A DNA stretch of 64,000 bases from a virus: the IMG/VR virus record IMGVR_UViG_3300000976_000009, positions 205,151 to 269,150 of that record; one strand, written 5' to 3'. Of this stretch, positions 791 through 8,875 are shown in pieces. Numbering within the stretch: the stretch's first letter is position 1; each line of letters begins with the position of its first letter. The notes beneath the pieces are model-generated. The model did no database searches. It was not told the DNA's origin and worked only from the letters and a program-made list of their open reading frames with translations. The position numbers and the translations under genes are program-made.

Positions 791-863
791 CTAGGTATGG
801 GAAAGTTGGTAATCCGCTTGCTTTGGGAGCAAGAGACCGCTGGTTCGAGTCCAGCTACTTAGA
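791..863 (+). tRNA. tRNA-Pro(TGG)
   Basis: ctaggta/tacttag acceptor, cttgc-tttggga-gcaag anticodon arm, GGTTCGAGTCC; no encoded CCA. Confidence 0.92.
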
Positions 864-903
864 CGAATTGGGTTAACACTAAACCAGTGAGGGAAGTGTA
901 ATA

Positions 904-977
904 CGGGGAGTGACCAAGGCTTTAGGCACGGGCTGTTTGGTGCAGTCAGTTGGTCGGTTCGATTCCGACCTCCCCGA
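904..977 (+). tRNA. atypical tRNA-Pro(TGG)
   Basis: cggggag/ctccccg-A acceptor, ggctg-tttggtg-cagtc, GTTCGATTC; non-canonical D region and T at position 37. Confidence 0.7.
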
Positions 978-981
978 CAAA

Positions 982-1052
982 GCTGGTTAATTAACATCGA
1001 GACTAGAATTTGAATTGGTTCTCGCCAAGACTTATAATAGGTTAATTGCCAG
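982..1052 (+). ncRNA. structured spacer between tRNAs (candidate ncRNA)
   Basis: gctgg-ttaattaac ... gttaatt-g-ccagc outer stem with inner cgaga...tctcg hairpin. Confidence 0.3.
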
Positions 1053-1063
1053 CACTAATACTA

Positions 1064-1137
1064 CGAGTGGTGACTAAGGTTTTAAGCACGGGGGCATTGG
1101 AAGCCTCAGTTAGTGGGTTCGATTCCCACCCATTCGA
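1064..1137 (+). tRNA. atypical tRNA-Pro(TGG)
   Basis: cgagtgg/ccattcg-A acceptor, ggggc-attggaa-gcctc; same odd D region as 904-977. Confidence 0.7.
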
Positions 1138-1140
1138 CAA

Positions 1141-1212
1141 CGAGAGGTCGTCTACCAGATAAGGCACCAGTCATTGGGACTGGAAAAGAAGGTTAAAGCC
1201 CTTCCCTCTCGA
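1141..1212 (+). tRNA. tRNA-like gene with Pro-type acceptor and distorted anticodon loop
   Basis: cgagagg/cctctcg-A, ccagt-cattggg-actgg, T-loop TTAAAGC. Confidence 0.5.
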
Positions 1213-1217
1213 CAACT

Positions 1218-1302
1218 GCGGAGATAGTATAATGGGTAACATACTAGTTATAGTACGCCAGCAATCCAGCTGGAAATGTGAGTTCGAATCTCGCTCTCCG
1301 CT
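1218..1302 (+). tRNA. atypical tRNA-Gly(TCC)-like
   Basis: gcggaga/tctccgc-T acceptor, extra gtaac/gttat hairpin in the D-loop, 6-nt anticodon loop aatcca. Confidence 0.6.
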
Positions 1303-1316
1303 CTAATAATTAACAC

Positions 1317-1387
1317 TGACCTATGGTGTAATGGTAGCATAAGAGTTTTTGGCACTCTTGGTCTAGGTTCGAACCCTAGTAGGTCAA
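1317..1387 (+). tRNA. tRNA-Gln(TTG)
   Basis: tgaccta/taggtca, agagt-ttttggc-actct, GGTTCGAACCC. Confidence 0.9.
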
Positions 1388-1394
1388 CAAATAT

Positions 1395-1479
1395 TGTGGT
1401 GTATGCAAATTGGCAAGCAGCCAGACTTTGAATCTGGTGTGGTATATCCCGACTGTAGGTTCGAACCCTACCACCATAA
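1395..1479 (+). tRNA. tRNA-Gln(TTG) with long variable region
   Basis: tgtggtg/caccata, ccaga-ctttgaa-tctgg, ~17-nt variable region. Confidence 0.8.
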
Positions 1480-1545
1480 CAATTATTTAATATGATTATA
1501 TTATACTTTTAAAAAAAAGAATGTACCTTTGCAAAAATTTTAGTT

Positions 1546-1836
1546 ATGATTAAGAAAGAAATTAAAGTATTAGATACGGTAACAACACCATCAGAGATAG
1601 CCCAACACGCATTGGTTAATTTCTTATATGGTCTATTAAATGGTTTAGTTATCATTACCATGATTCTTGGTAACCCTTGGTTGATATTATGTGCCTATTA
1701 CATATTGAAACAAGTAGAGAGTAAAATTTTAAATAGGAACAAATATACCAGTAAGTTTGGAAAGAGGTATTTATTTCCAATTCCTAGTACATTAGGATTT
1801 TTATTAGGTTGGTATATTGGAACTTTCTTTAAATAG
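1546..1836 (+). CDS. small membrane protein inside the tRNA array
   Basis: hydrophobic segments; TAccTTTG promoter at 1524-1531. Confidence 0.6.
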   Translation: MIKKEIKVLDTVTTPSEIAQHALVNFLYGLLNGLVIITMILGNPWLILCAYYILKQVESKILNRNKYTSKFGKRYLFPIPSTLGFLLGWYIGTFFK

Positions 1837-1844
1837 AAAGACAA

Positions 1845-1908
1845 CGAGTAAATGATTGTGTGACCCTAATGCATTAGGAGCTATAAGGTTTGATTCCTTT
1901 CTACTCGA
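1845..1908 (+). ncRNA. D-armless tRNA-like element
   Basis: cgagta/tactcg-A acceptor, cctaat-gc-attagg palindromic hairpin, aagg-tttgatt-cctt T-like arm. Confidence 0.45.
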
Positions 1909-1911
1909 CAA

Positions 1912-1976
1912 AGAATGATTACAGCAAATGTAACAACGACCAAACTTTTAATTTGATAAACGTAAAAAATCATTCT
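1912..1976 (+). ncRNA. stem-enclosed element presenting a Lys(TTT)-like anticodon loop
   Basis: agaatgatt/aatcattct closing stem, ACAGCAA, caaa-cttttaa-tttg hairpin. Confidence 0.45.
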
Positions 1977-1982
1977 GTATTT

Positions 1983-2064
1983 GGGTGTCTATGCAAATGG
2001 CGAAGCAAGCGAGTTGTAACCTCGTGACATAGAAACATTGGGGGTTCGAATCCCTCGGCACCCA
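1983..2064 (+). tRNA. tRNA-Tyr(GTA)
   Basis: gggtgtc/ggcaccc-A, gcgag-ttgtaac-ctcgt, long variable arm. Confidence 0.9.
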
Positions 2065-2109
2065 CACAATTTGGTTAGCACTAGACAAAATGAACTAGGA
2101 AGTGCAATT

Positions 2110-2191
2110 GGGGGTATTGAGCAATTGGCTGCTCAGCAGACTGTAAATCTGTCGCTTCACGGCATTGGGGGTTCGAATCCCTCTACCCCCA
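2110..2191 (+). tRNA. tRNA-Tyr(GTA)
   Basis: gggggta/taccccc-A, gcaga-ctgtaaa-tctgt, long variable arm. Confidence 0.93.
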
Positions 2192-2196
2192 CAATA

Positions 2197-2295
2197 AGTG
2201 GGATATACATGCAGCAATGTTTGGATTACGCCTAGTACAGATTAATTATCTGTTGATGAAAGGATATAAACGAGAGGTTCCTTTTAAGTCCCACT
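2197..2295 (+). ncRNA. candidate structured RNA
   Basis: agtggga/tcccact closing stem, GCAGCAA near the 5' end, acagat/atctgt and aaagga/tccttt hairpins. Confidence 0.35.
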
Positions 2296-2308
2296 GACGT
2301 TATTATAT

Positions 2309-2393
2309 GCCTATGTCCCATAGTGGTCGATTGGAACGGTTTTGTAAGCCGTAGGTGAAATTCCCACCGTTGGTTCGAATCCAACCATAGGCT
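2309..2393 (+). tRNA. tRNA-Thr(TGT) with long variable arm
   Basis: gcctatg/cataggc, acggt-tttgtaa-gccgt, ggtg...cacc variable stem. Confidence 0.85.
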
Positions 2394-2399
2394 CAAAAT

Positions 2400-2471
2400 G
2401 CTCTTTTAGTATAATGGCTATTATACGTCCTTGGTAGGGATGGGATTCCAGTTCGATTCTGGGAAAGAGCT
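2400..2471 (+). tRNA. tRNA-Thr(GGT)
   Basis: gctcttt/aaagagc, cgtcc-ttggtag-ggatg. Confidence 0.9.
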
Positions 2472-2479
2472 CAAAATTT

Positions 2480-2551
2480 GCCACCTAAGCATTTAGGGAT
2501 GATGTATGCTCTTGTAAAGCATGGAACGCAGTTCGATTCTGCGATGTGGCT
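2480..2551 (+). tRNA. tRNA-Thr(TGT)
   Basis: gccacct/atgtggc, atgct-cttgtaa-agcat, GTTCGATTC. Confidence 0.8.
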
Positions 2552-2561
2552 CAAATAAAAT

Positions 2562-2634
2562 GCGAGATGTAGCTTAATGGCTGAAAGCGTCTGCCTTCCA
2601 AGCAGAAGACGGGGTTCGATTCCCACATTTCGCT
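2562..2634 (+). tRNA. tRNA-Gly(TCC)
   Basis: gcgagat/atttcgc-T, tctgc-cttccaa-gcaga. Confidence 0.92.
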
Positions 2635-2642
2635 CAATACAT

Positions 2643-2714
2643 GCAGTATTGGTGTTAACGGTAGCACATGGGCCTTCCAAGTCCGAGGTGTGGGTTCGAA
2701 TCCCATGTACTGCA
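2643..2714 (+). tRNA. tRNA-Gly(TCC), A73 discriminator
   Basis: gcagtat/gtactgc-A, tgggc-cttccaa-gtccg. Confidence 0.85.
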
Positions 2715-2718
2715 CATA

Positions 2719-2803
2719 CTGGTTTTCGTCACCGATTTACCGTTAGGACCCATCGTGGGTTAACAGAATACAAATGAGGTGTGACAGGTGTGGAGAGACA
2801 CAC
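2719..2803 (+). ncRNA. candidate structured RNA between Gly tRNAs
   Basis: gtcac...gtgac pairing, accca-tcg-tgggt hairpin, gtgtg-gagaga-cacac hairpin. Confidence 0.35.
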
Positions 2804-2808
2804 AAAAT

Positions 2809-2880
2809 GCAGTAGTCGTATAGTGGCTATTACACCGCATTACCAATGCGGAGACGACAGTTCGATTCTGTTCTACTGCT
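2809..2880 (+). tRNA. tRNA-Gly(ACC)
   Basis: gcagtag/ctactgc-T, ccgca-ttaccaa-tgcgg. Confidence 0.88.
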
Positions 2881-2945
2881 CAAACTATTTTAGACTATAA
2901 CACACCCTTTACCTTGGTCTATGATATTTATTAATAAATGAAAAT

Positions 2946-3326
2946 ATGGGATTAACAAATATAAAGGGTGATATCGCTGAACTAGCGGTGGCAAAACGAT
3001 TTTTAGAATTAGGATATTGGGTTTCATTACCTTTTGGTGATGATGCACCTTATGATTTAATTATTGATAAAAATGGTGTATTTAAACGAGTACAAGTTAA
3101 ATATATTAAACCATATAATGATACTATTAAATTTAGAATGCTATCAAATAGTGGTAGGGATTATAGAAAAACAGTTGATATTATGGTTGGATATAATAGT
3201 GATAATGGTGATTGTTATCTAATAGATATGTCGGATGATATATCGGAGACATTATCATTAAAACTAAATAAACCAAAAAATAATCAGACTAAAGGAATTA
3301 ATTTAGCTGAAAATTATAAATTATAA
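2946..3326 (+). mobile_element. PD-(D/E)XK homing endonuclease (group I intron-associated family), apparently free-standing
   Basis: KGDIAE...PYDLIID...RVQVK motif. Confidence 0.85.
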
Positions 3327-3328
3327 AT

Positions 3329-3498
3329 GAGTATGCTTGCCCTTGTAGTGAAAGGGTAGCCCCACGTAAGGGGTGTGCTAATAAAGCTGAGGACTGAAAA
3401 GCAAAAATCTACTAAGTACGTATTAGGTAGGTTGGATTAAATTAGGTGACAGATGCCGATTTCCATCGGGTCTTGAGGTGCAAATCCCCACATGCTCA
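3329..3498 (+). ncRNA. ~170-nt RNA with tRNA-like acceptor and T-arm and a multi-hairpin interior
   Basis: gagtatg/catgctc-A stem, tgagg-tgcaaat-cccca T-like arm, four internal hairpins. Confidence 0.55.
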
Positions 3499-3502
3499 CT
3501 AT

Positions 3503-3612
3503 GGCTAAAACAAGTCGGTTGTATTTTATATTATGGTATATAATATAAAGTGATAGAATGATATGGGTGTTACAGTATCAACTATTATGGGGTTCGACTC
3601 CCCGCTTAGCCA
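3503..3612 (+). ncRNA. ~110-nt tRNA-like RNA lacking canonical D and anticodon arms
   Basis: ggctaa/ttagcc-A stem, gggg-TTCGACT-cccc T-arm, two AT-rich internal hairpins. Confidence 0.6.
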
Positions 3613-3648
3613 CTAAAATAAAATTATAAACAATTAAAAATAAAAACG

Positions 3649-3690
3649 ATGAAAACTTTATTGAAACTTAAACACAAGTGTAAACAGTAA
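3649..3690 (+). other. Lys-rich 13-codon mini-ORF MKTLLKLKHKCKQ followed by a hairpin
   Basis: A-rich initiation region, ATG..TAA, then agcattcg/cggatgct stem at 3691-3719. Confidence 0.4.
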
Positions 3691-3733
3691 AGCATTCGGC
3701 TCATAGAGTTACGGATGCTAATAAGAAAATTAT

Positions 3734-3809
3734 GCCTCCGTAGCTCAACTGGTTTTAGAGCACTCGACTTTTAATCGAGGGGTTCTGGGTTCGAGTCCCA
3801 GCGGGGGTA
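3734..3809 (+). tRNA. tRNA-Lys(TTT)
   Basis: canonical cloverleaf, ctcga-cttttaa-tcgag. Confidence 0.95.
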
Positions 3810-3815
3810 CTAATT

Positions 3816-3889
3816 GCACCTCTAGCAATCGTGGGATAGCAACTGGCTTTTAACCAGTACGGAGAAGGGTTCGACTCCCTTGGGGTGCA
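3816..3889 (+). tRNA. tRNA-Lys(TTT)
   Basis: gcacctc/ggggtgc-A, actgg-cttttaa-ccagt; weak D stem. Confidence 0.85.
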
Positions 3890-3895
3890 CAATAT

Positions 3896-3969
3896 GCCTT
3901 CGTAGCAATTGTGGAAAAGCGACTGACTCTTAATCAGTATGGAAATGGGTTCGACTCCCATCGGGGGTA
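3896..3969 (+). tRNA. tRNA-Lys(CTT)
   Basis: gccttcg/cgggggt-A, actga-ctcttaa-tcagt; weak D stem. Confidence 0.85.
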
Positions 3970-4333
3970 CTAATTAAAACCTAGTACTATGAATATAAGA
4001 AATATAGAAAGAAGATTATTAGAAGCGTATTCTGATGATTATAGAAGAATCTGGGTACAATACACCCAACTCAGCAAAAGAAGGTCTGAGTACAGAGTTT
4101 GCCTAACTCTATTCCCAATTACGGGACAATACACGATGTTATTTAGCGGAACTATTAATACAATAGATTACGATACTGTTTCAAAAGTAATTGAAAACAG
4201 TAGGGGCTCTTAATTTAAATTATTTTTTAGATAGTGGTTAAAAATTAAATGAATTATTATAAATAAAAAAATATTCATACTAATTATATGAATTATTAAT
4301 TTAATTTACTATCTTTGTAAAAAAAAGATAAAT

Positions 4334-5831: not shown

Positions 5832-7424
5832 ATGGAGGATTTTATTGATGAAATGGTAAACGATGGTGATAAAGTTATTACCCGTTTCCCACCAGAACCA
5901 AACGGTTACCTCCATTTAGGACATGTTAAGTCCATAGTGAAGAATTTTGGTATGGCAGAAAAATACGGTGGTACATGTAATCTTAGATTTGATGATACAA
6001 ATCCAACAGCTGAAAAGACGGAATATGTAGAAGCTATTAAGAATGATTTGGCTTGGCTTGGGTATACACCATCCGAAACTAATTATACTTCAAACTATTT
6101 CAATTTTTTATATAAAATAGCATTAACATTGATAGATGAAGGGTTAGCTTACGTTTGTGAATTAACTCCAGAAGAAATTGCTATTAATATTGGTACAACC
6201 ACTAAAGTTGGGGTAAATAGCCCATATAGAAATAGAAGTGTGGAAGAAAACCATGAGTTATTTCACAATATGTTTAAAGGTTATGTAAATGAAGGTGAAA
6301 TGACACTAAGGGCTAAAATAGATATGTCACATCCAAACATGCATATGCGTGACCCAATAATATATAGAATATGTTGGGATAAACACCATAATACGGGTTA
6401 CGATTGGGGGATATATCCAATGTATGATTTTGCACATGTGTTTTCTGATTATATTGAAGGTATTACACACTCATTATGTACACTTGAATTTGAAGTGCAT
6501 AGACCATTATACAATTGGTTCTTAGAACACATTGATTTAGAAGGTATGAATGTACCAAGACAAATTGAGTTCGCAAGACTTAACTTATCTCACACAATTA
6601 TGAGTAAGCGTAAGTTAAAGACTCTTGTTGACGAAGGTATTGTAGATGGTTGGGATGACCCAAGATTACCAACAATAGCTGGTATGAGAAATAGAGGGAT
6701 TCCAGCAGAAGCATTAAGAGATTTTTGTGAGATGATTGGGGTGTCAAAACGTGAAAGTCTTATTGAGATTTCAATGCTTGATAAATGTACTAGAGATGTT
6801 CTTAATAGAACTTCAAACAGACGTATGGTTGTGTTCGACCCAATTAAGGTAACAATTACCAATTGGGAAGGTAATGAAGAGTGGCTAACAGCTGACGTTA
6901 ACCCAGAGAATAAAGATGCTGGTGTTAGGATGGTTAATTTTGGTAAGAATCTTTTAATTGAAAGAGAAGATTTTATGGAAGATGCCCCAAAGAAGTTCTT
7001 TAGGCTATCTTTAGGTAAAGAAGTTAGATTCAAATATGGATATTATGTTACTTGTCATGAGGTGATTAAGGATGCTGATGGAAATGTAATTGAATTACTT
7101 TGTACTTACGACCCAGAAACTAGGGGTGGGTGGATTGAAGGTAGAAAGGTAAAAGGTACAATTCATTGGGTCAATGCTGATAATAACCACCCAGTTAAAA
7201 CATATCTTTACGATAGGTTATTTACTACAGAAGTACCAACAGATGATTTCTTAAATGAAATTAATCCTAATTCAATTAGTGAATCTTTTGGTTATATGGA
7301 AGCTGCTGGACCACATGCTTTAGATAAGTCCTTACAATTCGAAAGAAATGGATATTACCATATGGATAGTAATGGTGACTGGAACCGAACTCTTCCAATG
7401 AGAGATGGTTATAAAAAGAAATAA
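5832..7424 (+). CDS. glnS: glutaminyl-tRNA synthetase
   Basis: TRFPPEPNGYLHLGH, RFDDTNP, YPMYDFAH, THSLCTLEF, MSKRK. Confidence 0.97.
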   Translation: MEDFIDEMVNDGDKVITRFPPEPNGYLHLGHVKSIVKNFGMAEKYGGTCNLRFDDTNPTAEKTEYVEAIKNDLAWLGYTPSETNYTSNYFNFLYKIALTLIDEGLAYVCELTPEEIAINIGTTTKVGVNSPYRNRSVEENHELFHNMFKGYVNEGEMTLRAKIDMSHPNMHMRDPIIYRICWDKHHNTGYDWGIYPMYDFAHVFSDYIEGITHSLCTLEFEVHRPLYNWFLEHIDLEGMNVPRQIEFARLNLSHTIMSKRKLKTLVDEGIVDGWDDPRLPTIAGMRNRGIPAEALRDFCEMIGVSKRESLIEISMLDKCTRDVLNRTSNRRMVVFDPIKVTITNWEGNEEWLTADVNPENKDAGVRMVNFGKNLLIEREDFMEDAPKKFFRLSLGKEVRFKYGYYVTCHEVIKDADGNVIELLCTYDPETRGGWIEGRKVKGTIHWVNADNNHPVKTYLYDRLFTTEVPTDDFLNEINPNSISESFGYMEAAGPHALDKSLQFERNGYYHMDSNGDWNRTLPMRDGYKKK

Positions 7425-7872: not shown

Positions 7873-7904
7873 TTTGGAATTAATGAATTATTTAAGTATA
7901 TTTG
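7873..7904 (+). promoter_or_regulatory. promoter of the RNase P RNA
   Basis: TTTGG (7873-7877) and TAtaTTTG (7897-7904); predicted start coincides with helix P1. Confidence 0.75.
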
Positions 7905-7907
7905 TAC

Positions 7908-8224
7908 TTGACGAACCAGAGAACGTATCGCTGCGTTGGTACTTGATATCAAGGTAGAGGAACTTCGAGGCAACTTTGCTTAAGGTAGGAGATAACAGCA
8001 ACCCCGCAAATAACGGGGGAACGAAAGTGTAACGTGCAATCGCTTTGACTACTGAGGTTGCAACACATACAGACTTGAGCGGGTGAGCAACGCAATGATA
8101 GTCGGGTAGTGGCACCCACTGAAATGTGGGATGTAGTAATTAACTACATAGATAAATGATACGATGGTATATTGACTGGTTACCTATATACTTAACAGAA
8201 CTTCGGGCAAGCTCAGTTCGTCAA
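7908..8224 (+). ncRNA. rnpB: RNase P RNA (divergent, phage-encoded)
   Basis: P1 ttgacgaac/gttcgtcaa; CR-I-like GAGGAACTTCGAGG; TAGATAAATGAT; CR-V-like ACAGAACTTCGGGC. Confidence 0.85.
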
Positions 8225-8293
8225 CCATTTAGATGATTAAATAAAACTTTAAATTAAAGTTTTATTTTTTCATTTATCTCTATATTTATTAAT

Positions 8294-8875
8294 ATGGAGA
8301 ATAAATTTTATGTATACCAATTAAGGACATCTGATGATGAAATAATTTATATTGGTAAAGGTAGTGGCGATAGAATGAATAAGCATGTTAAAATTGCTAA
8401 TCATAATTCTAAGAATAGGAATAAAAACCCTAAACTTTATAATAAAATATCATCAATTATAAAAAATGGTGGCTATGTGATACCAGAGATATTATTTGAA
8501 AGCGAATCTGAGGAATTGTGTTTAACTAAAGAAGTTGAGTTAATTAAAGAGATTGGGTTAGAAAATCTTTGTAATTTAACTGAGGGTGGTGAAGGAACTA
8601 GTGGTTACAAGTTATCAGAAGAGACAAAAAAGAAAATGTCCGAGGCTAAAAAAGGTAAAAAACGAATTTTTAGTGAGGAACATAAAAAAAATATTTCTAA
8701 AGGTAAGATAGGTCATAAGGGATATTGGGAAGGTAAAGAATTATCTGAGGAAACTAGGGCTAAAATGTCTGCGGCAAAGAAAGGTAAAAAGAAAGGTCCT
8801 ATTTCTGAAAAAAGAAGACAAGCAATTATTAATGGTATTAAAAATAAAAAAAGAAAAAATGAAAACAGGTATTGA
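8294..8875 (+). mobile_element. GIY-YIG homing endonuclease with NUMOD3 repeats
   Basis: FYVY...[14 protein letters not shown], repeated [14 protein letters not shown]. Confidence 0.88.

Follow-up and report, generated by a model that had tools for sequence, protein, structure and literature searches.

The window analysed here is a 64,000-nucleotide stretch of a complete virus record (353,143 bases with terminal repeats). On its plus strand, to which all window coordinates below refer, we identified a 317-nt gene for a predicted RNase P RNA at 7908..8224, supported by a family-specific model, an Rfam match in E-value mode and base pairing. The gene occupies a G+C-rich gap between an open reading frame that ends at 7883 and one that starts at 8294. 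A glutaminyl-tRNA synthetase (GlnRS)-like gene lies upstream (5832..7424) and a GIY-YIG/NUMOD3 endonuclease gene directly downstream (8294..8875). An A/T-rich inverted repeat followed by a T run (8230..8276; fold -16.7 kcal/mol) forms a possible terminator, which a terminator scan that requires G+C did not call. Further upstream, an array of 15 tRNA genes (791..3970) represents part of the likely substrate pool of the RNA.

The genome as a whole has 65 tRNA calls and a tmRNA, and it also encodes a CCA-adding-type nucleotidyltransferase. Its capsid protein is T4-like, with 38-43% identity to capsid proteins of Microcystis, Flavobacterium and uncultured phages over about half its length. The phage tmRNA (G000:C1:142604-142968) has an unusually long, 31-residue tag and a Bacteroidota-type promoter in front of it.

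The initial annotation had given the RNA gene its own promoter, and we found a predicted one of the Bacteroidota rather than the sigma-70 type at 7873..7904. It comprises a -33 TTTG (7873-7876), a 20-nt spacer and a -7 TATATTTG (7897-7904) – a full match to the Bacteroidetes -33/-7 consensus as set out in part of PMC6847099 – and its predicted +1 near 7909 coincides with the start of the P1 helix. Genome-wide, TTTG-N20-TATATTTG occurs at 62 plus-strand sites, 55 of them outside long open reading frames, compared to 2-13 in 10 shuffles; a sigma-70 promoter scan stayed at chance level, with 6 sites found and 5.6 expected. The excess over shuffles suggests that the phage host is likely a Bacteroidota bacterium. 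Across the RNA family described below, a -7 box precedes just 13 loci out of 100 (5 on the opposite strand), and most loci sit inside tRNA operons.

A family of phage RNase P RNA candidates

The locus had initially been read as a phage-encoded RNase P RNA, with an Rfam search proposed as a check. That check gave a divided answer: at gathering level Rfam matched only tRNAs in the window and no RNase P RNA, but in E-value mode the RNA matched RF00011 with 29.9 bits (E 1.5e-6; gathering score 97). The RF00010 gathering score of 100 bits was likewise not reached by the window RNA, and two other members of its family scored 41 and 54.7 bits with this model. Single-sequence folding of the window RNA is weak (z -1.5) because two of its helices are pseudoknots.

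The GlnRS-like gene led us to a 362-kb relative (G001) that has a homologous RNA at the same position, again 3' of a GlnRS-like gene. Its P4 helix is fully paired, and four of the eight pairs are altered on both sides. With motifs common to the two RNAs as scan patterns, viral contigs yielded 43 and 53 loci, metagenomes at least 119 (with an estimate of ~270) and species genomes 5. Among the matches listed, 184 pattern heads yielded 144 complete loci and at least 111 distinct cores with a first parser that required P4 complementarity; the 40 heads it dropped comprise chance matches, truncated contigs, interrupted copies and missed variants. A second parser, which set the 3' strand of P4 by position alone, gave at least 103 distinct cores, among which a few mis-parses remain. 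A model built from 46 members, the window RNA among them, scores the window RNA at 98.4 bits. Together with covarying helices and the anatomy of the catalytic domain, this model upholds the original identification.

Other searches were less productive. Viral-contig scans with exact 3' motifs (13 loci) returned chance matches only, as did scans with the window P4 14-mer (at least 120 loci) among the matches listed, and blastn with the window RNA as query gave no genuine match among GenBank phages. One of the five species-genome matches is real (L319:1438-1594). It lies on a 10.6-kb contig on which no core bacterial gene is apparent; the Deltaproteobacteria assembly to which the contig belongs contains a normal rnpB as well, and this member is probably a binned phage fragment. 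A search of 141 sampled bacterial genomes with model R1, in which 20 candidates were scored per genome in a set without a positive control, found no member.

Searches with minimal members as queries located the family in huge phages from GenBank and also in Stenotrophomonas phage vB_SmaS-DLP_6 (DLP6), a cultured T4-like phage. The DLP6 member (KU682439.2 ~105,774-106,022; L529:2303-2551) scores 63.3 bits with the family model and 54.7 bits with RF00010; it is unannotated and lies inside a tRNA array. No RnpA was found in the DLP6 genome, and the main text of the DLP6 genome paper (PMC5349666) makes no mention of RNase P.

Several family loci have unusual neighbours or interruptions. Homologues of the GIY-YIG/NUMOD3 endonuclease occur near three other family loci, and a free-standing gene of this type adjoins the RNA in the window (8294-8875), L296, L367 and L394. 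In four further loci (L277, L376, L400 and L417), ~700 bases with endonuclease-like coding sequence interrupt the RNA gene after the J5/15 motif; these interruptions have no Rfam intron match. In the L315:2500 region and in L378, the 5' part of the RNA runs directly into a tRNA gene, and the 3' part was not found nearby. We observed no recurrent neighbour protein beside the family RNA, the largest cluster covering 6 of 79 loci.

A type A-like catalytic domain with a specificity stub

The window RNA folds as a complete catalytic domain of bacterial type A, with P4 and its bulged U, P6, an A248 equivalent and L15 GGU. Helix and residue names follow the cited papers. The two P4-region motifs named in the initial annotation are present, GAGGAACUUCGAGG from 7957 and ACAGAACUUCGGGCA from 8195. 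The first covers CR-I and the 5' strand of P4 (7957..7970; P4 7962-7970) with the bulged U7965, which is the equivalent of E. coli U69. The second belongs to a region (8150..8209) that comprises CR-IV (8150-8157), the 3' strand of P2, a weak P19-like hairpin (8166-8192) and CR-V with the 3' strand of P4 (8195-8209). The P4 pseudoknot of CR-I and CR-V with a bulged U, as expected of an RNase P RNA, is thus present.

Pairing in the window P4 consists of C7963-G8207, U7964:G8206, C7966-G8205, G7967-C8204, A7968-U8203, G7969:U8202 and G7970-C8201, with U7965 bulged. The departures from the usual P4 sequence had been called compensatory, and the pairing agrees. The pairs originally listed are right; that list omitted a mismatch at the first position (A7962/C8208), so that seven of the eight positions are paired. 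This first pair is A-U in 99 of 103 family cores, including the closest relative (L394), and A/C in the window RNA alone.

With the 3' strand placed by position alone, 92-102 of the 103 cores are paired at each of the eight positions, and P4 is 98.7% paired across the family. Its first three bases take eight forms: the bacterial AAG is found in 7 of 103 cores and the form of the window in 18. Canonical P4 ends occur in 31 of 32 bacterial loci, which are top matches mostly from one phylum and include one mis-parse. The P4 sequence of the family is free while its pairing is kept. In the Thermotoga maritima RNA, A50 and G51 coordinate metal by way of their phosphate oxygens (PMC4919922), and it is these two bases of P4 that are changed in the phage RNA.

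Covariation supports the remaining helices. We aligned 56 sequences, picked for low redundancy and short inserts, over 43 pairs in nine helices; 96.3% of cells are paired, compared to 73.4 +/- 0.6% in shuffled alignments and 27-43% with slid partners, and 30 of the 43 pairs show two-sided changes – all counted on the same sequences from which the structure was derived. The search patterns themselves fixed the bulged U as well as the P5 and P6 5' strands, and that these do not vary in the main set is therefore no evidence. Independent support comes from three members, reached through RnpA rather than through motif patterns, whose wholly rewritten P5 and P6 helices still pair at 4/4 and 5/5 positions.

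In the window RNA, P1 is formed by 7908-7916 with 8216-8224 and 7919-7921 with 8212-8214. The 5' strand of P2 and the P3 hairpin span 7924..7957: P2 pairs 7924-7930 with 8157-8163 (7/7), and the P3 hairpin (7931-7957) has a z of -3.1. P2 is 95% paired in the family, with two-sided changes at six of seven pairs, and CR-IV with P2 (8150-8163), another hallmark of RNase P RNA, is accordingly in place. P5 (7971-7974 with 8057-8060), the P6 pseudoknot (7977-7982 with 8084-8089) and P7 (7984-7988 with 8049-8053) are each supported by pairing and covariation. The following segment (8061..8111) holds J5/15 CAA, whose A8062 is the A248 equivalent, P15 (8064-8066 with 8109-8111) and L15 GGU (8105-8107). 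It also holds P16 (8072-8075 with 8100-8103), P17 (8079-8081 with 8091-8093) and L17 (8082-8090). Apart from P4, the helices of the window RNA are intact (P2 7/7, P5 4/4, P6 6/6, P7 5/5, P15-P17 full), and the window RNA has both type A features of this region: a P6 pseudoknot with P16/P17, and an A248 equivalent with L15 GGU. L15 GGU occurs in 110 of 111 family cores (102 by parser and, by eye, 8 of the remaining 9). The A248 equivalent is a G in two members, L488 and L323.

The loop between P16 and P17 (8076-8078 with 8094-8099) is k-turn-like by sequence fit. The pattern – a bulge of 3 nt and then G.A and A.G pairs – is matched by the window RNA and, on a crude parse, strictly by 18 and loosely by 51 of 103 cores. 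A k-turn can substitute for the P16/P17 kink, according to PMC3672288. We had considered GCAACACAUACAGAC and GGUGAGCA as degenerate CR-II and CR-III; covariation instead places them in J5/15-P15-L15 and L17, and we rejected that assignment.

Two hairpins occupy the P18 position (8115..8149), at 8115-8130 (z -4.5) and 8131-8149 (z -3.9). They show compensatory changes in the closest complete relative, the 362-kb phage, and are absent from most family members; 87 of 103 cores have at most 7 nt here. With its long P3, these two hairpins and a weak P19, the window RNA is a large member of the family.

A reduced specificity domain lacking CR-II and CR-III had been proposed from the first, and our analysis agrees. 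The remnant between the P7 strands is 60 nt long (7989..8048). A stem of 3 bp (7991-7993 with 8039-8041) closes it, and one hairpin in it is clear; its inner fold (z -0.9) could not be fixed from three relatives. We did not find P10-P12, CR-II or CR-III in this stub, so the window RNA departs from type A in its specificity domain. The family median between the P7 strands is 22 nt. Both CR-II- and CR-III-like motifs are present in 1 of 37 family stubs of at least 40 nt, compared to 29 of 32 bacterial loci, in which the search took in the entire span. The window RNA measures 253 nt from CR-I to CR-V, and the family median is 170, against at least 285 in bacterial controls. Two members (L275 and L370) carry ~400 nt where the stub would be. 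CR-II and CR-III read the D and T loops of tRNA, as stated in the consulted part of PMC4919922.

Substrates, protein partner and likely role

tRNA genes are present at 34 of the 47 family loci of at least 3 kb. Within the 353-kb genome, neighbouring tRNA genes are separated by no more than 15 nt in 35 of 68 gaps. Among the 58 tRNAs scored, 49 have U-1, all have C74 and two have an encoded CCA; one of the three pairs with L15 would therefore be missing until CCA is added. The tRNA genes of this genome (G000), like those of G009, G013 and G022, almost never encode CCA and always have C74, mostly with AA next. We rejected the C74-without-CCA pattern (58/58) as a co-adaptation to the RNA. The family model has no match in four complete phages that are related by their capsid and have 3-26 tRNA genes each, and these show the same U-1 and C74 pattern (46 tRNAs; C74 without CCA in 46/46). 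The U-1/C74 signature is thus not specific to the RNA, which is dispensable, and in those four phages the host enzyme evidently suffices.

The arrays also speak to the initial suggestion that specificity has shifted towards atypical tRNAs. A standard T loop is present in 61 of 67 tRNA-like genes and the D-loop GG in 65 of 67, the rewritten P4 is a family-wide trait, and the bulged U, A248 equivalent and L15 GGU are intact, all of which gives such a shift little support. Several tRNA-like genes do look odd, having additional arms, mismatched anticodons or T loops that are broken (867-1303, 1395-1480 and 2309-2394 in the window; G000:C1:184050-195517), and a stop anticodon was called in one (G000:C1:188241-188313).

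We detected no RnpA, L7Ae or PIN_5/HARP-type protein in the 353-kb genome, which makes host RnpA the likely partner of the window RNA. RnpA was found in 1 of 17 carriers examined and is absent from 8 of 10 near-complete carriers, the 353-kb phage included. Carriers that have one encode a short form of 92-102 aa with an RNR motif and nearest named relatives in Bacteroidota; this phage clade includes L442:1501-1794, L476-L485, LR756502 and LR745206. Four of ten viral records with the short RnpA also carry the RNA, including both of those at least 90% complete (one classed as a provirus), and the GenBank huge phages LR756502 and LR745206 have RNA and short RnpA together. Both are absent from all four complete capsid-related phages, which were picked regardless of the RNA. 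These counts, though small, point to RnpA as the partner of the family.

We consider it fairly probable that the phage RNA, a type A catalytic domain with a specificity stub, is a ribozyme that cuts the leaders of phage pre-tRNAs with host RnpA. Transcribed early by the Bacteroidota host RNA polymerase from ~7909, it would bind metal through the P4 backbone and bulged U. It would hold its substrate at the acceptor end, with the A248 equivalent at N-1 and L15 GGU at N73/C74. RnpA would grip the leader, the T-loop contact at the elbow being absent, and the 5' leaders of polycistronic phage tRNA precursors would be cut with the host protein. The RNA would supplement host RNase P, and replacement need not be assumed. 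The passages of PMC11143913 that we draw on place U69, A248 and G292-U294 in contact with metal, N-1 and the 3' end, respectively. The E. coli catalytic domain alone cuts, ~500-fold slower, and needs P6 and P15-17 while P18 is dispensable (PMC5839562, in part). The family keeps P6 and P15-17 and drops P18, in line with that dependence, which supports an active ribozyme as the likeliest reading.

Loss of the elbow-reading motifs also fits an active ribozyme whose main targets are hairpin-like substrates other than standard pre-tRNAs – atypical tRNAs, pre-tmRNA, or host or phage mRNAs. The phage has a tmRNA, 6 of 67 tRNA-like genes lack a standard T loop and several have extra arms, and non-tRNA substrates of bacterial RNase P exist (PMC4919922, in the part seen). 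We regard this as unlikely, since the elbow is normal in most tRNAs of the phage, the gene goes along with tRNA arrays and no other substrate was identified. Still less probable is that the family is otherwise functional but the window copy is in decay or has weak activity. Its A7962/C8208 mismatch is unique in 103 cores and is A-U in the closest relative, and an endonuclease gene adjoins it while some family copies are interrupted. However, the other helices are intact with lineage-specific compensatory changes, the promoter is a full consensus, and the mismatch could be an assembly error.

Two further possibilities concern the protein, and we hold each to be very improbable. The RNA might lack catalysis and serve as a decoy, binding host RnpA and so throttling host RNase P: what remains is the protein-binding catalytic domain, and the 353-kb phage lacks RnpA. 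This sponge idea, raised in the initial annotation, looks weak given the conserved L15 GGU and the conserved substrate-positioning P6/P16/P17 frame; moreover, phage arrays need 5' cutting, and phages with their own RnpA still keep the RNA. Alternatively, the RNA could act with an unrecognised phage protein, or with none, in place of host RnpA. The genome has no detected RnpA, L7Ae or HARP-type protein, the k-turn-like loop could bind a protein, and the extra hairpins may stabilise the window copy; against this, no protein recurs beside the RNA, and RnpA is the sole RNase P protein found in carriers.

Beyond the ribozyme reading that we favour, we tentatively raise a broader idea, which we think possible but rather doubtful: that large phages encode a complete mini RNase P. 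This would be an elbow-blind ribozyme of ~200-320 nt, in some lineages with a 92-102 aa RnpA, maturing tRNAs without need of the host RNase P RNA and accepting substrates that the host enzyme rejects. If so, the phage could still supply itself with tRNAs once host RNAs have been destroyed.

Relation to known RNase P RNAs

The usual view of RNase P RNA is of a ribozyme of cells, built of two domains and with a P4 that hardly varies; a widespread viral form that retains the catalytic domain alone departs from this view. We found no description of a virus-encoded RNase P RNA in a literature search that covered few subscription journals, and none is mentioned in the main texts of PMC7162821, PMC10690425, PMC7191817, PMC12974513, PMC8172020 or bioRxiv 10.64898/2026.10.21.760802; candidate tables of PMC10690425 and the bioRxiv study could contain unlabelled pieces of the family RNA. 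The family escapes Rfam cut-offs, and it can be tested in vitro and, through cultured DLP6, in vivo. More than 100 natural variants with a free P4 amount to an experiment of nature that asks what bases catalysis requires and what purpose the specificity domain serves, and tRNA 5' maturation would add a missing step to the translation toolkit of huge phages.

The phage RNA resembles bacterial type A (RF00010; E. coli M1 RNA and T. maritima P RNA), with the same P1-P7 and P15-P17 topology and the bulged U of P4. Further shared features are a P6 formed from L17, the J5/15 adenosine, L15 GGU, CR-IV, CR-V and a putatively kinked P16/P17 loop. It differs in lacking P10-P14, CR-II and CR-III, in its free P4 sequence, in falling below the Rfam cut-off and in being viral. 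We therefore describe it as type A-like, and as outside type A in specificity domain, P4 sequence and Rfam score. Type B (RF00011) gives the window RNA its best Rfam score, and two hairpins between P15 and CR-IV are common to both. Type B, however, has no P6 and instead a P5.1/P15.1 contact; since P6, P16 and P17 of the phage RNA are supported by covariation, the RF00011 match is superficial. The diverged RNase P RNAs of CPR bacteria (Lui et al. 2021, PMC8172020) also fall under Rfam cut-offs, and some lack P12. Those RNAs are chromosomal, though, and many lack the L15 GG motif and P16/P17, both of which the phage family keeps.

Two reduced forms are also close in architecture. The engineered catalytic-domain RNA of E. 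coli (Eco CP RPR), as far as it is described in the part of PMC5839562 consulted, retains the same parts, needs a P6-like contact and can dispense with P18; it is artificial, whereas in the phage RNA a genuine P6 remains, along with P7 and a hairpin stub that varies. Type T RNase P RNA shares a type A-like catalytic domain, a largely lost specificity domain and a kept P6, and P18 is absent in most phage members. The type T RNA described in the relevant portion of PMC3579882 has a 3-bp P2 and a 2-nt P5/P15 linker, compared to a 7-bp P2 and a 3-nt linker in the phage RNA. Furthermore, phage carriers with a protein have a bacterial-type RnpA, and the phage RNA is found in phages of bacteria. We infer that its likeness to type T most likely reflects convergent loss.
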